Shown: positions 35,328 to 49,654, counted from the stretch's first letter. The stretch is 49,654 nucleotides of DNA from an uncultured Alphaproteobacteria bacterium (GCA_944391375.1 CALXTJ010000004.1:1-49654); one strand, 5' to 3'. Translations and numbers: made by a program. The notes: generated by a model not told the origin, from the sequence alone.

Positions 35328-37448
35328 ATGGCACAGACTTATTTAGAAACCAATACGGTTAATCACAATTACCAAGCAAACAGTTGCGAAAATATAGAGG
35401 CAGAGTTAGCCGCACAGGAAAAACACCTGCAGGATAATTTGTCGCGTATCCGGGAGGAGATGCTGAACGCCGGCGATAATGCCGAAAATTTAAAAGCCGA
35501 AGCTGCCGGTTATCGTAACATTTTAAAGCAGGTATATGAGGATAAAGCTTTGCTTGAAAAATATCCTGATGTTTTCCCATATTTATATTCGGTAAGGGAG
35601 CGAGGCAAGGCTGATGACATGGAAGGCAAATTTACCGAAGTTTTGCAGCAGGAAGGAGATATTATTACCGAAGTTCAAGACATAGCTCCGCAAGAAGAAA
35701 GGCTTGAATTAAGCTATGAGTTAGATGGTATACCGTTTAGCATATCGGCTGATCCGTACGATAAGCCCGGAGAAGATGAGCGTCAATTAAAAGGACGCAT
35801 AAGTTTTTCAAATAAGGCAATAGATGAGTTAAACGAGTCGCGTTTGAAAGCAATTTTGGAGTTTTGTGAAAAGAGAGGCCTGTCGGTATATGATTTAGAT
35901 ATTCCGATGAAAGACGGAGTAATAGATTTAGACGGCAAGCTTGCTGAATTAACCCAAAAGATTTTAGAGGAAAGAAAGTTACAAGATATAGAAAATCCGG
36001 GGGCCGGTCCGGAGGATGACAATCCCGAGCATTATCACACTCTTGAAACGGACGGACAAGGTGCGTTATCGGCAGTTGACGGGGCAATGATAGCAGGTAC
36101 GAACGGTAAGCCTCAAAAGAAGGCACCGCCCAAACCTGTAGAGTTTGGTGATCTTCGTCAAGAATTGATAGATATGCTTGAAAAAGACATGAAGAAGACG
36201 CGTGGGTTGAGTTATTTTGAAACCACGCAGACCATTAAAGGTGTTCGTTTAAAGGTATTCAGCATTTACGACAAACCTGATGCCGACAACATGAAAAAAG
36301 ACGGCGTTAAAGACAAGAACGGCATTTATGTTCCGACCTACAGCCACCGTTTATACATGGGGCAAGATCCCAAAGACGGTCATTTTGTGTTCGGTTACTC
36401 TACACCTAACAGTAAAAAAATGGACGATACAATGGCCGGAGACTTTATGGGTATTGTTAAAAAAACGGGAGCCACGCATGTTCGGTTTTCAGATTTACAA
36501 AATTTGGATAAAGGAGTATGGATGGTAGCCTGTGCGGAGAAAGGTTTGGTCCCGATAGGCATAAGCATCAATCAGGCCAAAGCGGTTATGATGGTAGAGG
36601 CGGCTCGTAAAAAGTTAAGTAGTGAGGATTTTAACCTATTCAAGAAGCGTTTAGGAGAGCAATTATTAGAAAATGCCGCAAAGAAAAACGGTTCGGATAA
36701 GAAGTACTTTGGTTTGCCGAAATCGGAATATGACTACATTCAAAATTTGAAGAAGGGATATGAATTTGGTAACTTCAAAGATGCTTATGAAGATGACGGA
36801 GGACTGTACACCACCACCTTACATAAAATTGAAGAAGGGGCGGCCGACAGCAAAGAAGGGGCGGCTACAACCTTTGGTGCTATGGGTACATTAAGAGATG
36901 TGTTTGATATTTATATGAAGTATCAGCATGAAACATTCGGTTGTTTTTTGGAGCAAGGTACTTCCGGTCGTCGTCAATTTACCAAAGAAGAATTGGAAGC
37001 ATTAAAAGCCATACCGGCCAACAAGCCGATGATGGAATTGAGCAAGGCGGATTTTATGACCATTTACAGTGTGTTGTTGCCGCGTCGTATAGAAGATGCC
37101 AAGAAGGACATATACGAAGCCTACAAGCGTGAATTGAAGCGGAATCCGAAGCGAGCCGACGGTGTTATTTTGGGCAGCGATGTTTTCCCCAGATACAAAT
37201 CGGAAGTCAACGGCATTAACATTTATCTGACGCGTAACGGTATAGATACTTTAACCTTACCTAACGAACATAACGGTTTGGAATTTGCCCGACCGGAACA
37301 GTTACAGCCTGGAGCCCAAAACACGCAGCAACAGTCCCAAAACACGCAGCAAGATAAGCAAAACAACGAGGGCAAAGCCAAAGTCAACAACAATAGCGGG
37401 AATGCAGCGGTAAATGCCCAAGCTCAAAACTCTGCCAATAGCAGGTAA
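35328..37448 (+). CDS. Hypothetical 706-aa hydrophilic protein with Q/N-rich tail
   Basis: Long ORF with GGAG SD and its own promoter and terminator; no family recognised. Confidence 0.85.
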   Translation: MAQTYLETNTVNHNYQANSCENIEAELAAQEKHLQDNLSRIREEMLNAGDNAENLKAEAAGYRNILKQVYEDKALLEKYPDVFPYLYSVRERGKADDMEGKFTEVLQQEGDIITEVQDIAPQEERLELSYELDGIPFSISADPYDKPGEDERQLKGRISFSNKAIDELNESRLKAILEFCEKRGLSVYDLDIPMKDGVIDLDGKLAELTQKILEERKLQDIENPGAGPEDDNPEHYHTLETDGQGALSAVDGAMIAGTNGKPQKKAPPKPVEFGDLRQELIDMLEKDMKKTRGLSYFETTQTIKGVRLKVFSIYDKPDADNMKKDGVKDKNGIYVPTYSHRLYMGQDPKDGHFVFGYSTPNSKKMDDTMAGDFMGIVKKTGATHVRFSDLQNLDKGVWMVACAEKGLVPIGISINQAKAVMMVEAARKKLSSEDFNLFKKRLGEQLLENAAKKNGSDKKYFGLPKSEYDYIQNLKKGYEFGNFKDAYEDDGGLYTTTLHKIEEGAADSKEGAATTFGAMGTLRDVFDIYMKYQHETFGCFLEQGTSGRRQFTKEELEALKAIPANKPMMELSKADFMTIYSVLLPRRIEDAKKDIYEAYKRELKRNPKRADGVILGSDVFPRYKSEVNGINIYLTRNGIDTLTLPNEHNGLEFARPEQLQPGAQNTQQQSQNTQQDKQNNEGKAKVNNNSGNAAVNAQAQNSANSR

Positions 37449-37463
37449 GTGATTGATGTAAAC

Positions 37464-37494
37464 AAAAAAAACGCCCTTGATGGGCGTTTTTTTT
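37464..37494. terminator. Bidirectional terminator
   Basis: AAAAAAAACGCCC-ttgat-GGGCGTTTTTTTT. Confidence 0.85.
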
Positions 37495-37506
37495 GCAGCG
37501 GATTTC

Positions 37507-38229
37507 CTATACATCCCATACAAAGGTAAGATAACAAGAGCTTTTTTGATCGCACACTTTACAAGCCTCTGCAAAATCATTAAGAGTTAAATTTTTACAA
37601 CATAGCAGATTGGGATTGCTACAATAAGTATCTCCGTAACATTTATAGGAATATGTGGTGGTAGATGAGGAGCTTTCTTGATTAGATATGGCTATATAGC
37701 TTAATTCAGGGCTATAGCTAAGGGCGTTTTGATAAAGATTTTGGCATACCTCAAAAGAATTATTATTAAGTAACTGGTAGAGCATCGCTGTTTCGCTAAA
37801 ACTTGGGGCGTAGTTGTTTCTTAAAGTTATGGTTGAACCGAAAACATCCTGCAGGGTACCATCACTTTGCACCATATCTTCAGGTATTAACCCCATTTTG
37901 ATGTAATAAGGAGTTAGGCTAGTAAGTTTATCAAATTTCCATTCATGCCGATATTGGCTCATGATGCTAAAAAGATTATTAACCTGATCGGCCTGTTTGT
38001 TGAGTTTGTACTTCATCATGGCCTTAGAGTAACCGGCAATGGCTCCAACCGATAAAACGCCGATTATGGCCAGAACACCTAACATTTCCACCATACTTCT
38101 TCCGGAAAAAGTCGCATCTACTTGCAATTTTGCTCCTCGTGTACCTCTTATTGTACACTTCGTCGCAAAATAGCGGCGTATCTGCACCCTTTTGCGGAAG
38201 AAAGACCGTTTAAGTTCATTAAATTTCAT
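37507..38229 (-). CDS. Type IV pilin-like protein (copy A) with extended leader
   Basis: SG|RSMVEMLGVLAIIGVLSVGAIAGY class III signal (E at +5), DVFG motif, Cys-rich C-terminus. Confidence 0.85.
   Translation of the reverse strand: MKFNELKRSFFRKRVQIRRYFATKCTIRGTRGAKLQVDATFSGRSMVEMLGVLAIIGVLSVGAIAGYSKAMMKYKLNKQADQVNNLFSIMSQYRHEWKFDKLTSLTPYYIKMGLIPEDMVQSDGTLQDVFGSTITLRNNYAPSFSETAMLYQLLNNNSFEVCQNLYQNALSYSPELSYIAISNQESSSSTTTYSYKCYGDTYCSNPNLLCCKNLTLNDFAEACKVCDQKSSCYLTFVWDV
38097..38202. repeat. ~106-bp imperfect palindromic element (RPE/MITE-like) inserted in frame in the pilin A leader
   Basis: Nested inverted repeats TTCTTCCG/CGGAAGAA, AAAAG/CTTTT, TTTTGC/GCAAAA, GTGTAC/GTACAC; the leader is 36 codons longer than in paralog B. 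Confidence 0.75.
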
Positions 38230-38321
38230 AAAACATCTCCAAAAAAATTAGTAAAAAGAGCTTTAAACGAAATCTTAAACCGTTTTTTTTTTTGCAATTT
38301 TAAAGTTAAACCGGTGGATAA
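38221..38321 (-). promoter_or_regulatory. Pilin promoter cassette copy A: TTGCAA-(A-tract, 14-bp spacer)-TAAGAT
   Basis: Near-identical to 48878-48980; T11 run at 38283-38293 on the + strand. Confidence 0.75.
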
Positions 38322-38342
38322 CAAAGTGCTCAACCGATGAGG

Positions 38343-38625
38343 TCACTGTCCGAAAGAGGCCGTGTTCTTATTCAAAGTATATATGCTCCTGTCTTCTTTA
38401 CGGTTGTAAAATGTATTCTATGTTGACCAAGCTTTCTTTATCATAAGTGTTGTAGGCTTGTAATACTTTTCTATCCAAATAAACCGGAAATACCGCCCTT
38501 AAAGTGTTTTCTATCCTTCTGGAAAACGAATTTTGAAATGCCGCCGAAGTAATAATGTTGGCCACCATAATGCTGCCATCCTTTAAATGCTCCTTTACCA
38601 TCATGAAAAAGAAGTCGGGCAGATA
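38343..38625 (-). pseudogene. 5'-truncated, frameshifted remnant of a spermidine-synthase-like (SAM-fold) gene
   Basis: DFFFMMVKEHLKDGSIMVANII...VNIEYI, then a shifted frame YNRKEDRSIYTLNKNTASFGQ*; no proper 5' half. Confidence 0.45.
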
Positions 38626-38754
38626 AGAAAATTCATCTCTGACAACTTAGGCAAAGAAAACTTAGCCGTATTTGATTCGCTTTGGGTAGGCAAAAATGAT
38701 GAACGAGCCGTACAAATCGCTCAAATGCAGTCTTTTATCAATAAGGGAAGATAA
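38610..38754 (+). pseudogene. Possible 3' remnant of a second gene (...IRKFISDNLGKENLAVFDSLWVGKNDERAVQIAQMQSFINKGR*)
   Basis: Protein-like open frame ending at TAA 38752-38754, without a convincing start. Confidence 0.35.
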
Positions 38755-38823
38755 TAATTATCCTTTACCGACAGATAGTGTTTTTTTACCGATTAAAAAG
38801 TGCGTTTTATCAAGAGAATGTGC

Positions 38824-38852
38824 TTGCAAATTAAAAAAAAATGGTGTAAAAA
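38824..38852 (+). promoter_or_regulatory. Putative rpoBC promoter
   Basis: TTGCAA-17 bp-TAAAAA with TG upstream of the -10. Confidence 0.5.
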
Positions 38853-39088
38853 CTTTGCAAAATAAAAGCCTATTATTTGGTGAATCTGGTCCGAGTTTGG
38901 CTCTATGCCTAGGGGTTCGGCCGATTCGGCCGTATTTTTTTGCGTTTGTAAAAATGCTTAAAAAATATGTAAAAAACGTTTTTTATATTAACCTTCTGTT
39001 TGCGGGGTTTGGTGTTGCTTGTTAAAGCCAAGATAATGCCGATAGAATGGCTGCAGAATTATAGCTTAAAGAAAAGGATAAAAGTGCA

Positions 39089-42000
39089 ATGAAGGAATCT
39101 TATACGAGCAAAAGACGTGTAAGGAAAAACTTCGGTAAAATTGATGCATGCATTGATATGCCGAGTTTAATTGAGGTTCAAACCGGTTCTTATTCCAGTT
39201 TTATCAATAATGTTGATGCATACGGAGAGCATTGCGAATTCGGTTTGGAAGAAGTGTTCAAATCTATTTTCCCGATAAAAGATTTTTCCGGTAACGGCGA
39301 ATTGGAATTCGTTAAATACGAATTGGAAGAGCCTAAATACGATGTTGATGAGTGTATCAAACGCGATATGACTTATGCTGCACCGATTAAGGCTACTTTG
39401 CGTTTGGTAGTTTGGGATATTGACGAGGCTACCGGAGCCAAATCCGTTCACGATATTAAAGAACAAGATGTTTATATGGGCGATATTCCGTTGATGACCG
39501 ATAAAGGTACCTTTATTTTCAACGGTACCGAGCGTGTAGTTGTTTCCCAAATGCATCGTTCCCCGGGTGTGTTCTTTGATCATGACAAAGGCAAGACCAT
39601 GTCTTCCGGTAAATATTTGTTTGCGGCCCGTGTTATTCCGTATCGCGGTTCATGGCTTGATTTTGAGTTTGATGCCAAAGACTTGATTTATGCCCGTATT
39701 GACCGTCGTCGTAAATTGCCGGTAACATCCATTTTGTATTCTTTGTACTCCAAAGAAACCGAAGATCGTATCAAAGCCGGCGAAAAAGTTCCTGCCGAAG
39801 AAATTAAAGGCATGGATAAAGAGGAAATTTTAAATTACTTCTATGAAGCCGACGAATATATTGCCAACAAAAAAGGCTGGAAAGTTAAATTTAATCCCGA
39901 ACGCATGAAGGGTGTTAAATTCCCGTTTGATTTGGTAGATGCCAAAACCGGTAAAGTGGTTTGGGCTCAGGATAAAAAAATTACCCCGAGAACAGCCAAT
40001 AAATTGGTTGAGGACGGCTTGGAATACTATCAGGTTTCTGAGGAACAGCTGTATGGCAAGTTTTTGGCCAAGGCTGTTTTCAATGCCAAAACCGGTGAAA
40101 TTATTGCCGATGCCGGAGCTGAATTAAATGAAGAAGTTTTAGGCAAAATCAATGAAGCCAAAGTTAAAGAATTGAGCATTTTGTACATTGACGGCGTTAA
40201 TGTCGGACCTTATATCCGCAACACTTTGGAAGCTGATAAAAATCACTGCCGCGAAGAGGCTTTGCTGGATATCTACCGCGTTATGCGTCCCGGCGAACCG
40301 GCCACATTAGATGCTTCTTACCATCTGTTTAAGGCTTTGTTCTTTGATGAAGAGCGTTACGATTTATCGTCGGTCGGTCGTGTTAAAATGAACTTGGCTT
40401 TGGACATTCCTTTTGAGGAAGCTCCCGATACATATCGCACCTTGCGTAAAGATGATATTTTGCGTATTGTTAAACATATGATAGAATTGCGTGACGGTAA
40501 GGGCGAAGTTGATGATATTGACCACTTAGGTAATCGTCGTGTTCGTTCGGTCGGTGAGTTGATGGAAAATCAATATCGTATGGGCTTGCTTCGTATGGAA
40601 AGAGCCATTCGCGAAAAAATGAGTGCCGAAGTCTTAAACAATGTTAAACCGCAAGACTTGGTAAATGCTAAGCCGATAGCTTCGGTTATCAGAGAATTTT
40701 TCGGTTCTTCACAACTTTCGCAATTTATGGATCAAAACAACCCGTTGTCGGAAATTACCCACAAGCGTCGTTTATCGGCCTTGGGCCCCGGCGGTTTGTC
40801 TCGTGACAGAGCCGGCTTTGAAGTCCGCGATGTGCACCCGACACACTACGGTCGTATCTGCCCGATTGAAACTCCTGAAGGTCCGAACATCGGTTTAATT
40901 AACTCTTTGGCAACTTATGCCCGCATTAACAAATACGGCTTTATTGAATGTCCGTATCGTAAAGTTATTGACGGAGTTGTTACCAAAGATGTGGTATATT
41001 TGTCAGCCGATGAAGAAAGTAAATACATTATCGCCGAAGCTAACGCCAAAGTAAATGATGACGGACGCTTTGCTAACGATATGATTGCCTGCCGTAAAGC
41101 CGGTGAAGTTATTTATGCGGCACCTTCGGAAATTAACTTAATTGACGTTTCGCCAAAACAATTGGTTTCGGTTGCAACCGCTTTGATTCCGTTCTTGGAA
41201 AACGACGATGCTAACCGTGCGTTGATGGGTTCAAACATGCAGCGTCAAGGTGTTCCGTTGTTAAGAAGCGAAGCTCCGCTCGTCGGTACCGGTATTGAAG
41301 CAACCGTTGCCAAAGATTCCGGTGCTACATTGGTAGCTAAATATGACGGTGTTGTAGATTCGGTTGATGCCAACCGTATCGTTATTCGTTCCGATGATCG
41401 TCATGCCAGCAAGGTCGGTGTTGAAATTTATCGTTTGCAAAAATTCCGTCGTTCCAACCAAAACACCTGCATTAACCAAGTTCCGCTTGTTAAGGTAGGC
41501 GATAAAATTAAGGCCGGCGATATTATTGCCGACGGTCCTTGTACCGATATGGGTGAGTTGGCCTTAGGCAAAAATGTTTTGGTAGCATTTATGCCCTGGA
41601 ACGGATTAAACTACGAAGATGCTATTTTGTTATCCGAACGCATTTCTCGTGATGATGTTTTAACCTCCCTTCACATTGAAGAATTTGAGGTTATGGCTCG
41701 TGATACCAAATTAGGTCAGGAAGAAATCACTCGTGATATTCCCAATGTCGGTGAAGAAGCTTTACGCAACTTGGATGAAGCCGGTATTGTTTACATCGGA
41801 GCTGAGGTTAAAGCCGGTGATATTTTGGTAGGTAAAGTAACACCTAAAGGAGAATCTCCGGTAACTCCCGAAGAAAAATTGTTAAGAGCCATCTTCGGTG
41901 AAAAAGCCAGTGATGTTCGCGACACCTCGTTGCGTGTACAACCCGGTATTGAGGGTGTTGTGGTAGATGTTCATGTATTCTCCCGCAGAGGTGTAGAAAA

Positions 42001-43255
42001 AGATGAACGTGCTTTGTCTATTGAACAACAGGAAATTTCGCAATTGGCCAAAGACCGTGATGATGAAATTGCCATCGTTCGCAAGAGCTTTGATGCCCGC
42101 TTAAAAGAAATGTTAATCGGACAAACGGTGGTAGATGCCCCCAAGGGTATTGATAAAAAGGCTACCATCACTGCCGAAATGTTGGATGGTATTCCGTCCT
42201 CACAATGGCGTAAGATTGTAGTCAAAGATGAGAGCGTTATGGCTCAGATTGAAGAATTTTCGGCCGCTTTTGATGAAAGAGTTGCCAAAGTTCATAAGCA
42301 CTTTGACGACAAAGTAGAAAAAGTACAACGCGGTGATGATTTATTGCCCGGTGTATTAAAGATGGTAAAAGTCTTTATAGCCACCAAGCGTAAGATGCAA
42401 ACCGGTGATAAAATGGCCGGTCGTCACGGTAACAAAGGTACGGTATCCCGCGTATTGCCGTTAGAGGATATGCCTTACATGGAAGATGGTACGTCGGTAG
42501 ATATCGTATTAAATCCTTTAGGTGTTCCTTCTCGTATGAATGTGGGACAAATTTTGGAAACTCACTTAGGTTGGGCTGCCAAAGAGCTCGGCAAGCAATT
42601 AAACGAGATGTGCGAACAATACAAGAAGGGTGAAAAGACAATTGAGGAATTAAACAACCGCTTGCGTGAAATTTACGGCGACAAGCAGTACAAAGCCGAA
42701 ATTGAACCCTTAACCGAACCTGAAAAAATGGAAATGATATCCAACCTGAAAAACGGTATTCCGATGGCAACGCCGGTATTTGACGGAGCCAGCGGCGAAG
42801 ATATCAACCATATGCTGGAAATGGCCGGTTTACCGACCTCAGGTCAAATTGACTTGTACGATGGTCGTACCGGTGAAAAGTTTGATCGTAAGGTAACCGT
42901 AGGTATCATTTACATGATTAAGTTGCACCACATCGTAGATGAAAAGATGCACGCCCGTTCGGTAGGACCTTACAGTCTTGTAACTCAACAACCGTTAGGC
43001 GGTAAAGCTCAATTCGGCGGACAACGTTTCGGTGAAATGGAAGTTTGGGCATTGCAAGCTTACGGTGCAGCCTACACCTTGCAGGAAATGCTCACGGTTA
43101 AATCCGATGATGTCAACGGCCGAACCAAGGTTTATGAAGCCATCGTTCGCGGTGAAGACACATTTGATACCGGAGTACCGGAATCATTTAATGTTTTGGT
43201 AAAAGAAATGAAGTCTTTGTGCCTTAATGTTGAAATGTTGAACGAAGAAGTTTAA
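39089..43255 (+). CDS. rpoB: RNA polymerase beta subunit
   Basis: [54 protein letters not shown]. Confidence 0.99.
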
Positions 43256-43275
43256 GGATAAGGAGTTTTATAAAT

Positions 43276-46200
43276 ATGAATGATGTAATGAAATTTTTTG
43301 GTCAGCAGCCGGCTGAAGAGAGTTTTGATGAAATCAAGATTTCTATAGCTTCTCCTGAGCAAATTCGTTCTTGGTCATACGGTGAGGTTAAAAAGCCCGA
43401 GACCATTAACTATCGTACATTTAAGCCGGAAAGAGACGGTCTGTTTTGTGCCCGTATTTTCGGTCCTGTTAAAGATTACGAATGTTTGTGCGGTAAATAT
43501 AAACGCATGAAATATCGTGGTATCGTATGCGAAAAGTGCGGTGTTGAAGTAACATTGTCCAAAGTTCGTCGTGAAAGAATGGGCCATATTGAATTGGCAG
43601 CACCGGTTGCTCACATTTGGTTTTTAAAATCATTACCGAGCCGTATTTCAATGTTGACCGATATTCCGATGAAGTCATTGGAAAGAGTGCTGTACTTTGA
43701 AAGCTATATTGTAATTGAACCGGGTTTAACCGATTTACAAATGCACCAATTATTAACCGAAGACGAATATCAAGAGGCTTTGGATAAATACGGTGAAGAT
43801 TCGTTTAGAGCCGGTATCGGTGCCGAGGCTTTGCGTGAAATTTTGGCCGCCATTGATTTGGAAGCCGAACGTGCCACGATGCGTGCCGAATTAAAAGAAA
43901 CCAATTCGGAAGCCAAACGCAAAAAGTTGGTAAAACGTTTAAAGATTGTTGAATCGTTTATAGATTCCAACACCAAACCGGAATGGATGATTTTAACGGT
44001 ATTGCCGGTAATTCCGCCGGAATTGCGTCCGTTGGTACCGTTAGACGGCGGTCGTTTTGCCACATCGGATTTGAACGATTTGTATCGTAGAGTAATCAAC
44101 CGTAACAACCGTTTGAAAAGATTGTTGGAATTACATGCTCCGGAAATTATCGTTCGTAACGAAAAGAGAATGTTGCAAGAGTCGGTTGATGCCTTGTTTG
44201 ATAACGGTCGCCGTGCTCGTGCCATTACCGGAACCAGTAAGCGTCCGTTGAAATCGTTATCGGATATGCTCAAAGGTAAGCAAGGTCGTTTCCGTCAAAA
44301 CTTGTTAGGTAAACGTGTTGACTACTCCGGTCGTTCGGTTATTACCGTAGGTCCGGAATTGAAGTTGCAACAATGCGGATTGCCTAAAAAGATGGCCTTG
44401 GAGTTGTTTAAGCCGTTCGTATATTCCAAATTGGAATTGTACGGACACGCTACAACCATTAAAGCTGCCAAAAGAATGGTAGAAAAAGAGCGTCCGGAAG
44501 TATGGGATATTTTGGAAGAAGTGATAAGAGAGCATCCGGTATTGTTAAACCGTGCTCCTACTTTGCACCGTTTGGGTATTCAAGCATTTGAGCCGGTACT
44601 TGTGGAAGGTAAAGCCATTCACCTGCACCCGCTGGTTTGTACGGCATTTAACGCCGACTTTGACGGTGACCAAATGGCAGTACATGTACCGTTATCCATT
44701 GAAGCTCAATTGGAAGCTCGTGTCTTGATGATGTCAACCAACAACATTTTATCGCCGGCATCCGGTAAGCCGATTATCGTTCCTTCACAAGACATGGTAT
44801 TAGGTATCTACTACTTAACTTATGAAGCCGATGATGTAATGGGCGAGGGCGGAATTTACGCCGATGCCGATGAGGTAATGTTGGCCTTAAACGCCAAAGT
44901 TGTAGACTTGCATGCTAAAATCAAGTGCCGTATGGAATATGTTGACGACAACGGCGAGACCAAATATGGCTTGGTAGATACCACTCCGGGTCGTATTATC
45001 GTTTCCGACATTTTGCCCAAGAATCCGAACATACCGTTTTCTTTGGTAAACCGCTTGTTAAAGAAGAAGGAAATTTCGGAAATCATTGACACGGTATATC
45101 GTCATTGCGGCCAAAAAGAAACCTGCATCATGGTAGATAAAATCATGACCTTAGGCTTTACCAATGCATGTAAGGCAGGTATTTCGTTCGGTAAGGATGA
45201 TTTGATTGTACCTGATGCCAAGAAGACCTTAATTGAAGAAACCACCAAACAGGTAAAAGAGTTTGAAGCACAATATCAAAACGGTTTAATCACGAAGGGT
45301 GAAAAATATAACAAAGTGGTAGATATTTGGGCAGCCTGCACTGACAAGATTGCCGATGAAATGATGAAAAACATTTCCAAGACCGACCATGGTTATATTA
45401 ACTCCGTATACATGATGGCACACTCCGGAGCTCGTGGTTCTGCTGCTCAAATGCGTCAATTGGCAGGTATGCGTGGTTTGATGGCCAAACCGAGTGGTGA
45501 AATTATTGAACAACCGATTATTTCCAACTTTAAGGAGGGATTAACGGTGTCTGAGTACTTTAACTCCACCCACGGTGCACGTAAGGGTTTGGCCGATACG
45601 GCATTAAAGACCGCCAACTCCGGTTATTTAACGCGTCGTTTGGTAGATGTAGCCCAAGATGTTGTGGTAACGGAAACTGATTGTGGAACCGAGAGAGGCA
45701 TTATAGTTCGTCCGGTAGTTGACGGAGGTAATGTAATTGTTTCCATCGGTGACAGAATTTTGGGACGAACCATTCAAGAAGATATTATCCACCCCGAAAC
45801 CGGTGAAGTTTTGGTTAAAAAGGGTAAGCTGATTGATGAAAACGATGCCGAATTGGTAGAAAAAGCCGGTGTTGAGCAAGTTAAGATTCGTTCGGTATTA
45901 ACCTGTGATTCCGAGCATGGTGTATGTGCGGCATGTTATGGTCGTGACTTAGCCAGAGGAACTCCGGTTAATGTAGGTGAAGCGGTAGGCGTAATTGCCG
46001 CTCAATCCATCGGTGAGCCCGGTACGCAATTAACGATGAGAACCTTCCACATCGGTGGTGCGGCTTCCAAGTCTGCCGAGCAATCCAGTGTTGAAGTACC
46101 GTTTGCCGGTGTTTTGAAATTGGACAACAAACATACGATAACCGATTCTGAAGGTCATTTGATTGTTTTATCGCGTAACTGTGAAATTATCATAGAAGAT

Positions 46201-47475
46201 GCCCAAGGTCGTGAAAAATCGCGTCACCATGTTCCTTACGGTACCAAAATTTTGGTAGAAGAAGGAGCCAAAGTTAAGAAAGGTCAAAAAGTTGCCGAGT
46301 GGGATCCGTTTACGATTCCGGTCATTTCGGAAAAAGCCGGTACGGCTCAACTGGTAGACTTGATTAACAATGTTTCGGTAAAAGAGAGCATGGATGAAAC
46401 GACAGGTATTGTATCTAAAGTTGTAATAGATTGGCGTAGCGGCTCATCGGCCAATGCTTCGTTAAAGCCGAGCATTGTTTTAAAAGATGCCAAAGGCAAG
46501 TCTGTCAACTTTGATAACGGCAAGGAAGCCCGTTATTATCTGTCGGTAGATGCGGTATTAACGGTAGACAACGGCAGTGAGGTTAAGGTAGGTGATGTAA
46601 TCGCTCGTATTCCGAGAGAGAGCTCCAAGACCAAAGATATTACCGGTGGTTTACCGCGAGTTGCCGAATTGTTTGAAGCTCGTCATCCTAAGGATCAAGC
46701 ACTCATTTCCGATATTGACGGTATGGTAGAGTTTGGTAAGGATTACAAGGCCAAACAACGTATAAGCGTTATACCGGCCAAAGGCGAACCGATTGAATAT
46801 TTAATTCCGAAGGGTCGTCACCTGGTAGTACAAGACGGCGATATTGTTAAAAAAGGTGATTTACTGGTAGAAGGCACACCTGCACCGCATGATATTTTAA
46901 GAGTATTGGGTGTAGAAAAGTTAGCTGAATACTTAGTAAAAGAAGTTCAAGATGTATATCGTCTGCAAGGTGTTAAAATCAACGATAAGCACATTGAAGT
47001 GATAGTATCGCAGATGCTCAAGAAAGTTGAGATTAAGACGCCCGGAGATACAACCTTCTTGGTAGGCGAGCAGGTAGACAAGGATGTATTTGAGGCAGAA
47101 AATGCTAAGGTGATAGCTGAAAACGGAGAACCGGCAACGGCAGATCCGGTATTGTTAGGTATTACCAAGGCCTCATTGCAGACCAAGTCGTTTATATCTG
47201 CGGCCTCATTCCAAGAGACCACGCGTGTCTTGACGGAAGCGGCAGTTGCCGGCAAGGTAGACAAGCTGACCGGATTGAAGGAAAATGTAATTGTCGGTCG
47301 TTTAATTCCGGCCGGTACCGGTACGGTATTGCGTTCATTGCGTAGAGTTGCAGCCCAAAACGACAAAGAGATTTTGGCTCAACGGGAAGCAGAAGCCAAT
47401 GCCAAATTAGCAAGTGCCAACAGCAACACCGAAGCGGAAAAACCCGTTACGGCGGAAGAAACTCCGGCTGAATAG
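43276..47475 (+). CDS. rpoC: RNA polymerase beta' subunit
   Basis: [12 protein letters not shown], Zn-finger [23 protein letters not shown]. Confidence 0.99.
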
Positions 47476-47490
47476 CTTAAATTAGCAACT

Positions 47491-47526
47491 AAAAACCCTC
47501 GCTTTAGCAATAAGGCGAGGGTTTTT
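47491..47526. terminator. Bidirectional terminator after rpoC
   Basis: AAAAACCCTCGCTTTA-gcaa-TAAGGCGAGGGTTTTT. Confidence 0.85.
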
Positions 47527-47559
47527 GTTTGGATTAAAGTAAACTTATAAAATCATCTG

Positions 47560-48273
47560 GGCTCTTGACTAGTATCTTTTAAGAAGATAGGGTTAAAGGC
47601 AATGAAATACAATAGATTAAGCAGATATAAAATAAAAAAAATAATAGTGTGTTTTTCTGAGGACATAACAGCGACCTCGGCAAGTAAAATTTTAGGCATA
47701 AACAGGAACACCATAAATTCGTATTATAACGAATTCAGAGAACGCATATTAGAAGAAAGTTTGCTAGAACAAGAGAAAGAGTTAGGAGAATATGAGCTTG
47801 ACGAAAGCTATTTTGGAGCAAGAAGAATAAGAGGTAAAAGAGGACGAGGAGCAGCCGGAAAGACACCTGTTTTTGGATTATTGAAAAGGAATGGAAAAGT
47901 ATTTGTCAGTGTTGTTCCCAACTGTTCAAAAGAAGAGCTAATGCCCATAATACAAGGAAAAATCTTAGAAGGAAGCACTATTCATACAGATGGATGGAGA
48001 GCTTATGATGGTCTTATTTTGAATGGATATAATCATTACAGAGTGTTTCATCATGAGAATGAATTTGCTAGAGGAAAATCTCATGTAAATGGGATAGAAT
48101 GTTTTTGGAGTTATGCAAAAAGAAGAATGGCTAAATTTAATGGTTTGACTGACGACAAATTCATCTTGCATTTAAAGGAGTGTGAGTGTAGATTTAATCA
48201 TAGAAATGAGAATTTTGCATCCTTCATTGAGCATATTTTTTTCAAAAATAAAAAAAGATACTAGTCTAGAGCC
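47560..48273 (+). mobile_element. IS1595-family insertion sequence (IS1016-like group), 714 bp
   Basis: 21-bp terminal IRs GGCTCT(T/A)GACTAGTATCTTTT with 1 mismatch; 7-bp target duplication TCATCTG at 47553-47559 and 48274-48280. Confidence 0.92.
47602..48264 (+). CDS. IS1595-family (ISXO2-like DDE) transposase
   Basis: HTH, ELDESYFG, GKRGRGAAGK, IHTDGWRAY, HVNGIECFW, LKECECRFN. Confidence 0.95.
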   Translation: MKYNRLSRYKIKKIIVCFSEDITATSASKILGINRNTINSYYNEFRERILEESLLEQEKELGEYELDESYFGARRIRGKRGRGAAGKTPVFGLLKRNGKVFVSVVPNCSKEELMPIIQGKILEGSTIHTDGWRAYDGLILNGYNHYRVFHHENEFARGKSHVNGIECFWSYAKRRMAKFNGLTDDKFILHLKECECRFNHRNENFASFIEHIFFKNKKRY

Positions 48274-48886
48274 TCATCTGATAATAAAAAATGCAAATGT
48301 CTTTGTCTTCGCAAACGTTACAAAAGTCTTCCATTTCAGCAAGGGTTAAATCTTTAAGGCATTTACGGTCAGATGTGCAATAATTATCGCCATTAACTAT
48401 GTTGGCCGAGGAATTTTCTTCACCTTTGGTTGTTTCAAACTTGGTACGCCAAAGTTGCTCTCTTTTGGCTTTAGCGATTGTAAATAAATTCATGCACGAT
48501 TCTTTTTGTCCTTTATTCAAGTATGTCATAAACTCAAAGGTATAACCGCCATCGCCGCCAGTGTAATTTTTTAAAGCTATAGTAGTGCCGAAAACATCAA
48601 ATATTACATCATTTATGTTTTCGCGTATCATTTCTTGCGGGATAACGTTTAATTTTTTAAGTATAGGTACCATATTTTCGGCAATAGAAGTTTTTGAGCG
48701 CTTAAAATCGTCCATATGAATGTTGACGTAGTCTAAAATCGAGCCGATTTGTTCGGTCTGTTTATTGAGTTTATACTTCATCATGGCCTTGGAATAACCG
48801 GCAATAGCCCCGACAGACAGTACGCCTATGATTGCAAGTACGCCAAGCATTTCCACCATGGAACGACCTGATTGATAAAATTTCAT
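48266..48886 (-). CDS. Type IV pilin-like protein (copy B)
   Basis: MKFYQSG|RSMVEMLGVLAIIGVLSVGAIAGY, DVFG, GDNYC..C..LTL..C..C..C; GGAGG SD. Confidence 0.88.
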   Translation of the reverse strand: MKFYQSGRSMVEMLGVLAIIGVLSVGAIAGYSKAMMKYKLNKQTEQIGSILDYVNIHMDDFKRSKTSIAENMVPILKKLNVIPQEMIRENINDVIFDVFGTTIALKNYTGGDGGYTFEFMTYLNKGQKESCMNLFTIAKAKREQLWRTKFETTKGEENSSANIVNGDNYCTSDRKCLKDLTLAEMEDFCNVCEDKDICIFYYQMRL

Positions 48887-48980
48887 TTAAAACCTCCAAA
48901 AAAATTAGTAACAAAAGCTTTAAACGAAATCTTAAACCGTTTTTTTTTTTTTGCAATTTTAAAGTTAAGCCGGTGGATAA
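48878..48980 (-). promoter_or_regulatory. Pilin promoter cassette copy B: TTGCAA-(A-tract, 16-bp spacer)-TAAGAT
   Basis: Near-identical to 38221-38321; T13 run at 48940-48952 on the + strand. Confidence 0.75.
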
Positions 48981-49045
48981 AATAAAGTTACATCAAGTAT
49001 CGCACATACAAGTAAAGTAACCTTGTCAAAAATGTAGATGTTGCT

Positions 49046-49654
49046 TTAAGAACTTATTCTTCCCCAAAGAATGGAAAAATTACAATAGCTTTTTGAACTA
49101 TCACAAGTAGAACATAAATCATCTATCTCGGATAGCGTCAAGTCCTTAATGCACTTCAGGTTATCTCCACAATAGGTGTCTCCAAATGTTCTGTTACCGT
49201 ATTGTGTGCTACCGTCTTCTTTATCTTTGGTAAACATTACTTGCCACAAACCGGCTGAACGTAATTGTGCCATTTGATATAAATTCATGCATATTTCATG
49301 AGCATCTTTGTCCAAAGATATTTGTAATCCATAATATATATTATAAGTATCATCGTTTAAAAAAGGCCAAACAGCATTTCCGAAAACATCTTTTACATAA
49401 CCGGTGTCAGCCGAATTTTCAACTATCATTTCAACAGGAATGGCTCCTAATTTTTGCAATAGAATACCAAAATTCATGGAAAAATCATGAGTAAATTTAT
49501 CGGAATTGATGGTGACATAGTCTAAAATGCTGCCGATTTGTTCGGTTTGGCGATTAAGTTTATATTTCATCATGGCTTTGGAATAACCGGCAATAGCCCC
49601 GACAGACAGTACGCCTATGATTGCAAGTACGCCAAGCATTTCCACCATGGAACG
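49046..49654 (-). CDS. Type IV pilin-like protein (copy C), 5' end beyond the window edge
   Basis: ..RSMVEMLGVLAIIGVLSVGAIAGYSKAMMKYKLN, same Cys pattern as copies A and B. Confidence 0.88.
   Translation of the reverse strand, partial: RSMVEMLGVLAIIGVLSVGAIAGYSKAMMKYKLNRQTEQIGSILDYVTINSDKFTHDFSMNFGILLQKLGAIPVEMIVENSADTGYVKDVFGNAVWPFLNDDTYNIYYGLQISLDKDAHEICMNLYQMAQLRSAGLWQVMFTKDKEDGSTQYGNRTFGDTYCGDNLKCIKDLTLSEIDDLCSTCDSSKSYCNFSILWGRISS

Follow-up and report, generated by a model that had tools for sequence, protein, structure and literature searches.

Switching of transcription by homopolymeric tracts in promoters has been described mainly in mycoplasmas and a small number of pathogens. In the vlp genes of Mycoplasma hyorhinis the ON tract consists of 17 A's and fills the promoter spacer, and in Bordetella a run of C's separates the activator site from the −10 element of the fim2 and fim3 promoters. 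Spacer repeats of Neisseria porA and opc and of Haemophilus hif, and the T-tract "rheostat" of Helicobacter sabA, give graded or on/off transcription. The pilS copies of Neisseria are promoterless and recombine into one expression site. Here we describe a promoter cassette with a poly(A) spacer that is shared by two pilin genes, pilins A and B, in a stretch of 49,654 nucleotides (the window) from an uncultured Alphaproteobacteria bacterium (GCA_944391375.1, CALXTJ010000004.1:1-49654). The window is the whole of contig C4 of a metagenome-assembled genome (MAG), G000, which comprises 1.33 Mb in 73 contigs with 39.9% GC.

As in the vlp system, a surface multigene family is combined with a conserved promoter region that places a homopolymeric A tract before each gene; in M. 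hyorhinis, transcription is switched gene by gene to give combinatorial surfaces. A published account attributes this switching to insertions and deletions in the poly(A) tract of each vlp gene promoter (PMC10502178). The Vlps are mollicute lipoproteins of 3–8 genes (PMC4198240), whereas the cassette described here serves alphaproteobacterial type IVb-like pilins and occurs in 5–92 copies per genome. The tract here also differs in consisting of A10–A13 plus 5–7 fixed bases and in being strongly modal, and its switching is putative. With fim, the locus shares fimbrial subunit genes, a homopolymer that sets spacing, a candidate upstream activator site and paralogs that would be switched independently; the fim tract is made of C's, and the fim promoters are BvgA-dependent and serve three or four genes for chaperone-usher fimbriae, not type IV pilins. 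The porA, opc, hif and sabA cases concern single pathogen genes, whereas here a dispersed family carries one shared cassette. The large pilin repertoire with a conserved N-terminus and variable heads is reminiscent of Neisseria pilE/pilS, but each copy here has its own promoter, ribosome-binding site and start codon, and pilin A probably its own terminator too. Of the known systems, the vlp promoters of M. hyorhinis come nearest to the cassette in architecture, and those of Bordetella fim and Neisseria porA/opc in logic. For N. meningitidis nspA, a published report describes a 5A/6A promoter tract that alters expression while phase variation was undetectable (PMC6389960); a promoter homopolymer can therefore be a fixed allele and not a switch.

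An initial annotation, made from the window alone, had reported near-identical upstream regions of ~100 bp before pilins A and B, far more conserved than the heads of the proteins. This was borne out: the two cassettes are 91% identical across 101 nucleotides by BLAST, compared with 40% identity over 199 amino acids for the mature pilins, whose first ~38 residues are identical while the heads have diverged. On the coding (minus) strand both cassettes read TTATCCACCGG(T/C)TTAACTTTAAAA-TTGC-A(n)-CGGTTTAAGATTTCGTTTAAAGC...GGAG-N-ATGAAATTT, and from TTGC onwards they run TTGC-A(n)-CGGTT-TAAGAT-TTCGTTTAAAGC...GGAG(G)-N6-ATGAAATTT. Counting TTGCAA as the −35 and TAAGAT as the −10 hexamer, pattern searches returned the annotated tracts and spacers, A11 with 14 bp at pilin A and A13 with 16 bp at pilin B, and the pattern TTGCAA-N-TANNNT recovers both. 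The elements are as follows (a slash marks the end of the pilin leader).

37507..38229, minus strand: pilin A, 240 amino acids, long-leader class MKFNELKRSFFRK...ATFSG/RSMVEMLGVLAIIGVLS
38237..38240, minus strand: ribosome-binding site GGAG of pilin A, found by reading and kept across copies
38272..38277, minus strand: candidate −10 TAAGAT of pilin A, a pattern match
38283..38293, minus strand: poly(A) tract of pilin A, 11 nucleotides, giving a 14-bp spacer
38292..38297, minus strand: candidate −35 TTGCAA of pilin A, overlapping the start of the tract by two A's
38313..38321, minus strand: upstream motif TTATCCACC of cassette A, 5' edge of the conserved cassette and candidate regulator site
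48266..48886, minus strand: pilin B, 206 amino acids, short-leader class MKFYQSG/RSMVEML..., with a predicted type IVb-like pilin fold
48893..48897, minus strand: ribosome-binding site GGAGG of pilin B, found by reading
48929..48934, minus strand: candidate −10 TAAGAT of pilin B, a pattern match
48940..48952, minus strand: poly(A) tract of pilin B, 13 nucleotides, giving a 16-bp spacer
48951..48956, minus strand: candidate −35 TTGCAA of pilin B, a pattern match
48972..48980, minus strand: upstream motif TTATCCACC of cassette B, the same motif as in cassette A

Conservation sets in abruptly at TTATCCACC, 28 nucleotides 5' of TTGC, and continues to the start codon. A cassette tract lies downstream of 23 of the 34 TTATCCACC sites in the genome, and other forms of the cassette carry the related upstream motifs TTATCCCCAC and CTTATRCACAG. 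The hexamers TTGnnn and TAnnnT expected of a sigma-70-type promoter are present: TTGCAA is invariant in both of the cassette types distinguished below, and the −10 variants of the family (TAAGAT, TAGAAT, TATGAT, TATAAT and TAAAAT) all fit TAnnAT. The usual sigma-70 spacer of 16–18 bp is found at pilin B (16 bp), but neither at pilin A (14 bp) nor in the 15-bp mode of the family. In more distant MAGs, TTGC-A12-CGGTT is kept with the −10 sequences TAGAAT, TATGAT or TATAAT, and the untranslated regions (UTRs) are wholly different. Between the two types and in the distant MAGs the flanks and the UTR have diverged, yet TTGCAA and TAnnAT persist; the promoter assignment is therefore sound, and comparison of the sequences supports well the view of the cassette as a sigma-70-type promoter with a homopolymer as its spacer.

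Four Sigma70_r2 frames are present in the genome (720, 306, 297 and 172 amino acids), none of which could be linked to the cassette. Sigma-54 promoters, which are common before type IVa pilins, have GG and GC elements ~11 nucleotides apart (TGGCAC-N5-TTGC); on direct reading, with no search for rpoN, this assignment was rejected because of its spacing, the nearest GG (in CCGG) lying 16 nucleotides before the GC of TTGC. An invertible promoter was likewise rejected, as the inverted-repeat search found, apart from A/T arms of low complexity, a single repeat, which lies within the leader of pilin A, and none flanking the cassette. An Rfam search of positions 37000–49654, with E-values up to 1, gave no match on either cassette.

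The initial annotation overlooked that the two cassettes belong to a family of about 25–30 copies in G000 that extends across the genus. BLAST of the 101-nucleotide cassette against its own genome returned 30 matches, many at contig ends, and 25 of the 28 runs of at least 10 A's or T's in the 1.33-Mb genome lie inside cassette copies, a concentration well above chance. All 21 complete cores stand before a pilin start (MKF...) or a contig end, the genes being complete in 13 cases, cut in 4 and cut before the ATG in 4. The histogram of paralog tract lengths proposed in that annotation, drawn from the 23 intact copies, shows a spread from A10 to A14 (A10 once, A11 three times, A13 three times, A14 once) together with a dominant A12, at 15 of 23. 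In two further G000 copies TTGC is replaced by A's, giving A15 (C16:8297-8311) and A19 (C40:11871-11889), and at locus L134 a run of 20 A's directly precedes CGGTT, TTGC being likewise replaced; in such copies either the −35 has been lost or the repeat has been misassembled.

As a dispersed repeat, the cassette breaks assembly, which explains the fragmentation of these MAGs. Logan contigs assembled at k=31 from four sequencing runs (X1, X2, X8 and X17) stop at or within the cassette, the pieces of run X1 ending at 38103 and restarting at 38293. Indels recorded in contigs at 38282 and 48940 are shared A12 repeat unitigs of other copies and hold no per-locus information on tract length. Pilin loci in these MAGs are therefore prone to mis-assembly, a warning for their users. 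The runs that hold the window are mostly labelled chicken gut or bird, and two pattern scans of public metagenome contigs returned 0 stretches. In RNA run X17, the bodies of pilins A and B have almost no cover while unique rpoB and rpoC bins reach depths of 2–5, an absence that is no evidence; the strain in that run may lack the genes.

Across the genus, the cassette is present in 12 of 12 genomes, in 5–92 copies each and in two types, while a reversed-pattern control gave 0 hits in each genome searched. Type 1, TTGC-A(8 or more)-CGGTT, has 59, 26, 42, 51, 53 and 5 copies in six genus-mates; this pattern is blind to fewer than eight A's or an altered CGGTT, as in the copy at the pilin A position of G009 (A10-CAGTT). 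When these copies are pooled with the 23 intact ones of G000 (n=259), A12 accounts for 180 (69%), A13 or longer for 25, A11 or shorter for 52, and interrupted tracts for 2; lengths range from A8 to A14, with 36 copies at A11, 22 at A13 and 3 at A14. Five other genus-mates lack type 1 and carry type 2, ...CTTATRCACAGCAYRGACTCGTAAATA-TTGC-A(n)-CGCGAGC-TAAAAT..., in 45, 72, 55, 75 and 92 copies (339 in total), while G000 has no type 2 copies. Among the 150 of 339 type 2 copies listed, 123 (82%) have A10, 20 have A9 and 3 have A8, and A6, A11, A12 and A10 plus a G occur once each. The modal spacer is thus 15 bp in both types, as A12 with CGGTT and as A10 with CGCGAGC, and since a longer tract with five fixed bases and a shorter one with seven arrive at the same distance, spacer length, not tract length, is what is maintained. 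Spacers of at least 16 bp are found in 25 of 259 type 1 and 14 of 339 type 2 copies, and only 3 of the 409 listed copies have an interrupted tract. Off-mode copies make up 24–50% in A12-type genomes with at least 21 copies and 15–21% in A10-type genomes, that is, they are commoner where the tract is longer. An apparent rule of one copy with a spacer of at least 16 bp per genome seemed true in G003, G005 and G007 and was abandoned because G006 has 3 and G010 has 8.

Tract polymorphism was compared between copies and species. At the pilin A position the tract is A11 here, A12 in G001, G002 and G004, and A10 in G009 (which has the same leader class); at the pilin B position it is A13 here and A12 in G009. 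Off-mode states are thus not inherited at syntenic positions. The open reading frame (ORF) used as the synteny anchor, 38696–39025, is poorly conserved, has stops in relatives, and served solely to locate the intergenic region. The poly(A) spacer that had been described as variable does differ in length among paralogs and syntenic positions, but it does not vary freely, with 69% and 82% of copies at the mode.

Order-wide, most of 61 genomes hold 1–4 TTGC-A9+ sites, and at least 11 copies are found in nine sampled genomes belonging to four genera (g1, g33, g13 and g12). In relatives (G011, G001 and G004; L159, L166, L161, L162 and L169) the same promoter core also occurs before non-pilin genes. 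Two paralogs of a signal-peptide protein, MNFLKNNIFIILAF..., have the core with A9 and A13, and another non-pilin gene has a perfect TATAAT with tracts of A9, A9 and A14. Across genomes, A9 copies (12-bp spacer) number 12 compared with 9 at A10. All 12 genomes of the genus encode MutS, and 11 of them encode MutL. The sole genome of the genus without a MutL (PF01119) match, G005, is 97% complete and has the top share of tracts shortened by one base among type 2 genomes (14 of 72 at A9), which may be a coincidence with the MutL gap.

The spacing of other promoters in G000 provides the norm against which the 15-bp mode can be judged. In 1049 non-cassette upstream regions, the pair TTGnnn-N-TAnnnT was found 175 times at 16 bp (80 in shuffled sequence) and 175 times at 17 bp (81 shuffled), while at 15 bp there was no enrichment (73 versus 77.5). 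The narrower pair TTGCnn/TAnnAT gave 26 versus 4.2 at 16 bp, 18 versus 3.4 at 17 bp and 4 versus 3.0 at 15 bp. A tRNA-Lys(CTT) promoter at G000:C59:3997-4025 (L170) reads TTGCAA-[A8 TTAGGGGGT]-TATATT with a 17-bp spacer; spacers at this promoter are 17, 17 and 16 bp in three of the 12 genomes, and its A-run is shortened in two genus-mates, in G009 by substitution. In contrast to the pilin tracts, it thus retains its spacing although the A-run has decayed. A TTGC-A9+ site resembling the tRNA-Lys promoter may have been the ancestral source of the pilin cassette. Three pilin genes that lack the cassette (C6:20260-20590, C10:13369-13700 and C11:9880-10213; L147–L149) have promoter candidates of 17–18 bp. 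With a genome norm of 16–17 bp, the modal pilin promoter is 1–2 bp short, pilin B falls within the norm and pilin A lies further out. On this preference, the earlier ranking of the pilin A promoter below that of pilin B is reasonable. Against the idea that A14 would supply an optimal 17-bp spacer, 15 bp is the state that is kept, and A14 was found in only 3 of 259 type 1 copies. A putative rpoB promoter said to use TTGCAA at 17 bp could not be recovered: TTGCAA-N14-19-TANNNT has 6 matches window-wide, none of them on the plus strand between 38322 and 39088.

The products of the cassette-driven genes are type IVb-like pilins, as structural modelling indicates. Their N-termini have the features of type IV pilins (G at the end of the leader, E at +5 and a hydrophobic helix); the prepilin motif G/RSMVEMLGVLAIIGVLS is invariant and is borne by about 30 G000 genes, and G/RSMVEMLGVLAIIGVLSVGAIAGY is invariant among 23 aligned relatives. 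Modelling of pilin B with AlphaFold, based on 23 relatives (predicted local distance difference test score 85.4), yielded a pilin fold, with a helix at residues 8–56 and a sheet. The top Foldseek matches of this model are TcpA (8uhf; E 9e-5, template modelling (TM) score 0.58), PilS of S. Typhi (3fhu), the type IVb pilin of enterotoxigenic Escherichia coli (ETEC; 9iuf) and CofA (3s0t), with TM scores of about 0.55–0.6 against type IVb pilins. Profile searches gave pilin B only sub-threshold Pfam matches, to N_methyl (16.7 bits against a cut-off of 21.2) and PilS (18.4 bits against 22), and no Pfam match to pilins A and C; NCBIfam gave no hit to pilin A and family hits far under the cut-off. 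G000 also encodes assembly components: a prepilin peptidase (one Peptidase_A24 match) and T2SSE ATPases in three open frames, of 555, 326 and 326 amino acids.

Pilin leaders fall into several classes. In the long-leader class of pilin A, 43 residues precede G/RSMVEM, and a third class has leaders of ~70 residues. In the pilin A leader a GTGTAC...GTACAC palindrome is enclosed by a 25-nucleotide inverted repeat with imperfect arms (38097-38121 / 38178-38202); by reading, the leader also has an in-frame GAGGAG-N5-TTG that would yield an ordinary 9-residue leader; these extra features may be alternative starts or regulatory RNA structure. Many pilin leaders of type 2 genomes (L058, L063, L070, L071, L073, L085, L096, L105, L122 and L132) have in-frame perfect hairpin-repeat insertions (...CACTCCGGTCAAGCCGGAGTG...) that resemble miniature inverted repeats within the coding leader. 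The three pilins without the cassette have mutually similar ~290-nucleotide leaders with a terminator-like hairpin just 5' of the ribosome-binding site, which gives them a riboswitch-like look; Rfam matched them only to sRNA-Xcc1, with scores of 35 and 31 bits that fall short of the gathering score, 53.

We propose that the cassette is a shared family promoter in which slippage tunes individual pilin paralogs, an explanation to which we give about an even chance. The ~100-bp cassette would serve an expanded family of type IVb-like pilin genes as their shared promoter and 5' UTR, in the order TTATNCAC motif, A/T-rich block, −35 TTGCAA, poly(A) spacer, −10 TAnnAT, ~36-nucleotide leader with GGAG, and ATG, and every pilin gene would be its own transcription unit. 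Because 15 bp is 1–2 bp under the genome norm, the default would be a weak or an activator-dependent promoter. Slipped-strand gain or loss of one A would shift the spacer by 1 bp, a longer spacer (16–17 bp; pilin B, A13) raising the output of that paralog and a shorter one (14 bp or less; pilin A, A11) lowering it, so that the pilin repertoire would differ between lineages and perhaps between cells. The anatomy and copy number of the cassette, its conserved hexamers, the purity and lengths of the tract, the spacing norm of the genome and the syntenic differences are observed; we infer the transcription start site (predicted near 38265 and 48922 on the minus strand), the effect of spacer length on output, its reversibility and any adaptive role. 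The resemblance of the cassette to a Vlp-like or fim-like slippage switch or rheostat is partly supported: tract purity goes beyond what mere length constraint needs, off-mode copies are more frequent where slippage should be faster, off-mode states differ at syntenic positions, and the targets are a large surface-protein family in a host-associated bacterium. More tentatively, and with somewhat less confidence than in tuning as such, one may picture a contingency system spanning the genus, with 20–90 pilin genes per ~1.4-Mb genome held one base short of working spacing, in which a +1 slip would turn on one paralog at a time and so produce combinatorial variation of the pili.

Several observations weigh against slippage tuning. 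The length distribution stays narrow from species to species, A12 accounting for 180 of 259 type 1 copies and A10 for 123 of the 150 type 2 copies listed, while classic contingency loci usually have broad length spectra, and few copies reach the 16 bp that would raise output, as counted above. That both types land on 15 bp points to direct selection for this distance, which would be odd for an inert OFF state. With MutS and MutL present, there is no loss of mismatch repair to raise slippage, and the spacing test relied on crude ORF calls and mononucleotide shuffles. These facts could also be read as a co-regulated family promoter of fixed geometry, in which the 15-bp A-tract spacer is itself the optimum, set for example by a dedicated activator at TTATNCAC or by A-tract stiffness or curvature and held by purifying selection, off-mode copies being neutral or mildly deleterious slippage mutants with no adaptive switching. 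The recurrence of the 15-bp mode in two types of differing tract length, the 69–82% of copies that are exactly modal across 12 genomes, the fall of the type 1 distribution on either side of A12, the conserved upstream motif and the presence of mismatch-repair genes are all in its favour, as is the rise in off-mode frequency with tract length, which mutation-selection balance predicts. We nevertheless consider it unlikely, if a serious contender. A 15-bp spacing is not enriched among the other promoters of G000, and the tRNA promoter, which shares the −35 and also has an A-run, is spaced at 17 bp. Moreover, length constraint alone needs no pure homopolymer, so that an extra structural role of the A-tract would be required, and 15–50% off-mode copies would be a heavy load under strong selection for length. 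Slippage tuning can be reconciled with the tight mode if 15 bp is a deliberately weak core, perhaps needing a factor at TTATNCAC, in which single slips tune the paralogs.

All genomes compared are short-read MAG consensus sequences, in which an isolated off-mode length, such as the A11 and A13 of this window, could stem from misassembly. Taken to its limit, this would make all length differences homopolymer sequencing or assembly errors over uniform true tracts, a suspicion fed by the way in which the cassette repeat breaks assemblies, with contigs ending inside it, and by two off-mode G000 copies (C50 and C57) that lie at contig ends. We regard it as improbable, since twelve independent assemblies share one narrow, structured distribution, exact agreement of 70–85% shows that these lengths are for the most part called in the same way, several genomes contain A9 copies that have flanking variants of their own, and the tracts of pilins A and B are internal to a 49.6-kb contig. 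More improbable still is that TTGCAA/TAAGAT is not the promoter, the A-run being an UP-like element or being transcribed, for example from the TAAAAT just 5' of TTGC, and acting through reiterative transcription or mRNA effects. A consensus scan does give TTGTTA-16-TAAAAT overlapping cassette A, all types have an A/T-rich block (TAAAAT/TAAAGT/TAAATA) before TTGC, and one RNA-library contig spans an A12 tract, although it may be DNA carry-over. The TTGTTA −35, however, is specific to copy A and is not kept in others, the family consensus has no TTG-type hexamer 16–18 bp 5' of TAAAAT, and no hexamers are better conserved among the diverged types than TTGCAA and TAnnAT.

The surroundings of the two pilin genes contain the following further features.

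37462..37496, strand not assigned: hairpin with flanking A- and T-runs, directly 3' of the pilin A stop
47602..48264, plus strand: IS1595-family transposase gene (PF12762, E 2.3e-28), between rpoC and pilin B
49046..49654, minus strand: pilin C, a 5'-open frame whose 5' end and promoter lie beyond the contig end

The hairpin at 37462..37496 has a folding energy of −21.3 kcal/mol (z −5.5), with 0 of 200 shuffles folding equally well, and is not among the sites listed by the consensus scan; a T-run comes after its stem. It is likely a bidirectional terminator serving pilin A and the convergent gene at 35328-37448, an ORF of 706 amino acids without a match in Pfam or NCBIfam; with so strong a hairpin at its end, pilin A looks like a self-contained transcription unit. 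At 47420-47530, a sub-threshold Rfam match to His_leader (35.6 bits, gathering score 49) coincides with a 17-pair terminator hairpin after rpoC (47490-47527) and is most likely merely the rpoC terminator. In contigs of run X8, 47552 is joined straight to 48274 and the IS1595 transposase gene is absent, and runs X2 and X8 moreover yield contigs with rearranged or replaced loci of pilins A and B (joints 37470 to 38603 and 47475 to 48972). The missing transposase and the altered joints indicate that the pilin loci are strain-variable.

Literature searches at the level of titles and abstracts found no description of a pilin poly(A) promoter system. If the contingency reading is true, this would be, to our knowledge, the largest family under a simple-sequence promoter switch and the first such case in this lineage and for type IV pilins. 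Individually promoted pilins take up 2–5% of a small genome. If the tract acts as a switch or dimmer, abundant but uncultured Alphaproteobacteria of bird and human guts would vary their pili in the manner of the mycoplasmas and pathogens above, on a far larger scale, with a bearing on how commensals evade immunoglobulin A (IgA) and pilus-specific phages. Should 15 bp prove to be a fixed optimum, the cassette would be a natural instance of a conserved promoter class that works outside the spacing norm of its own genome.

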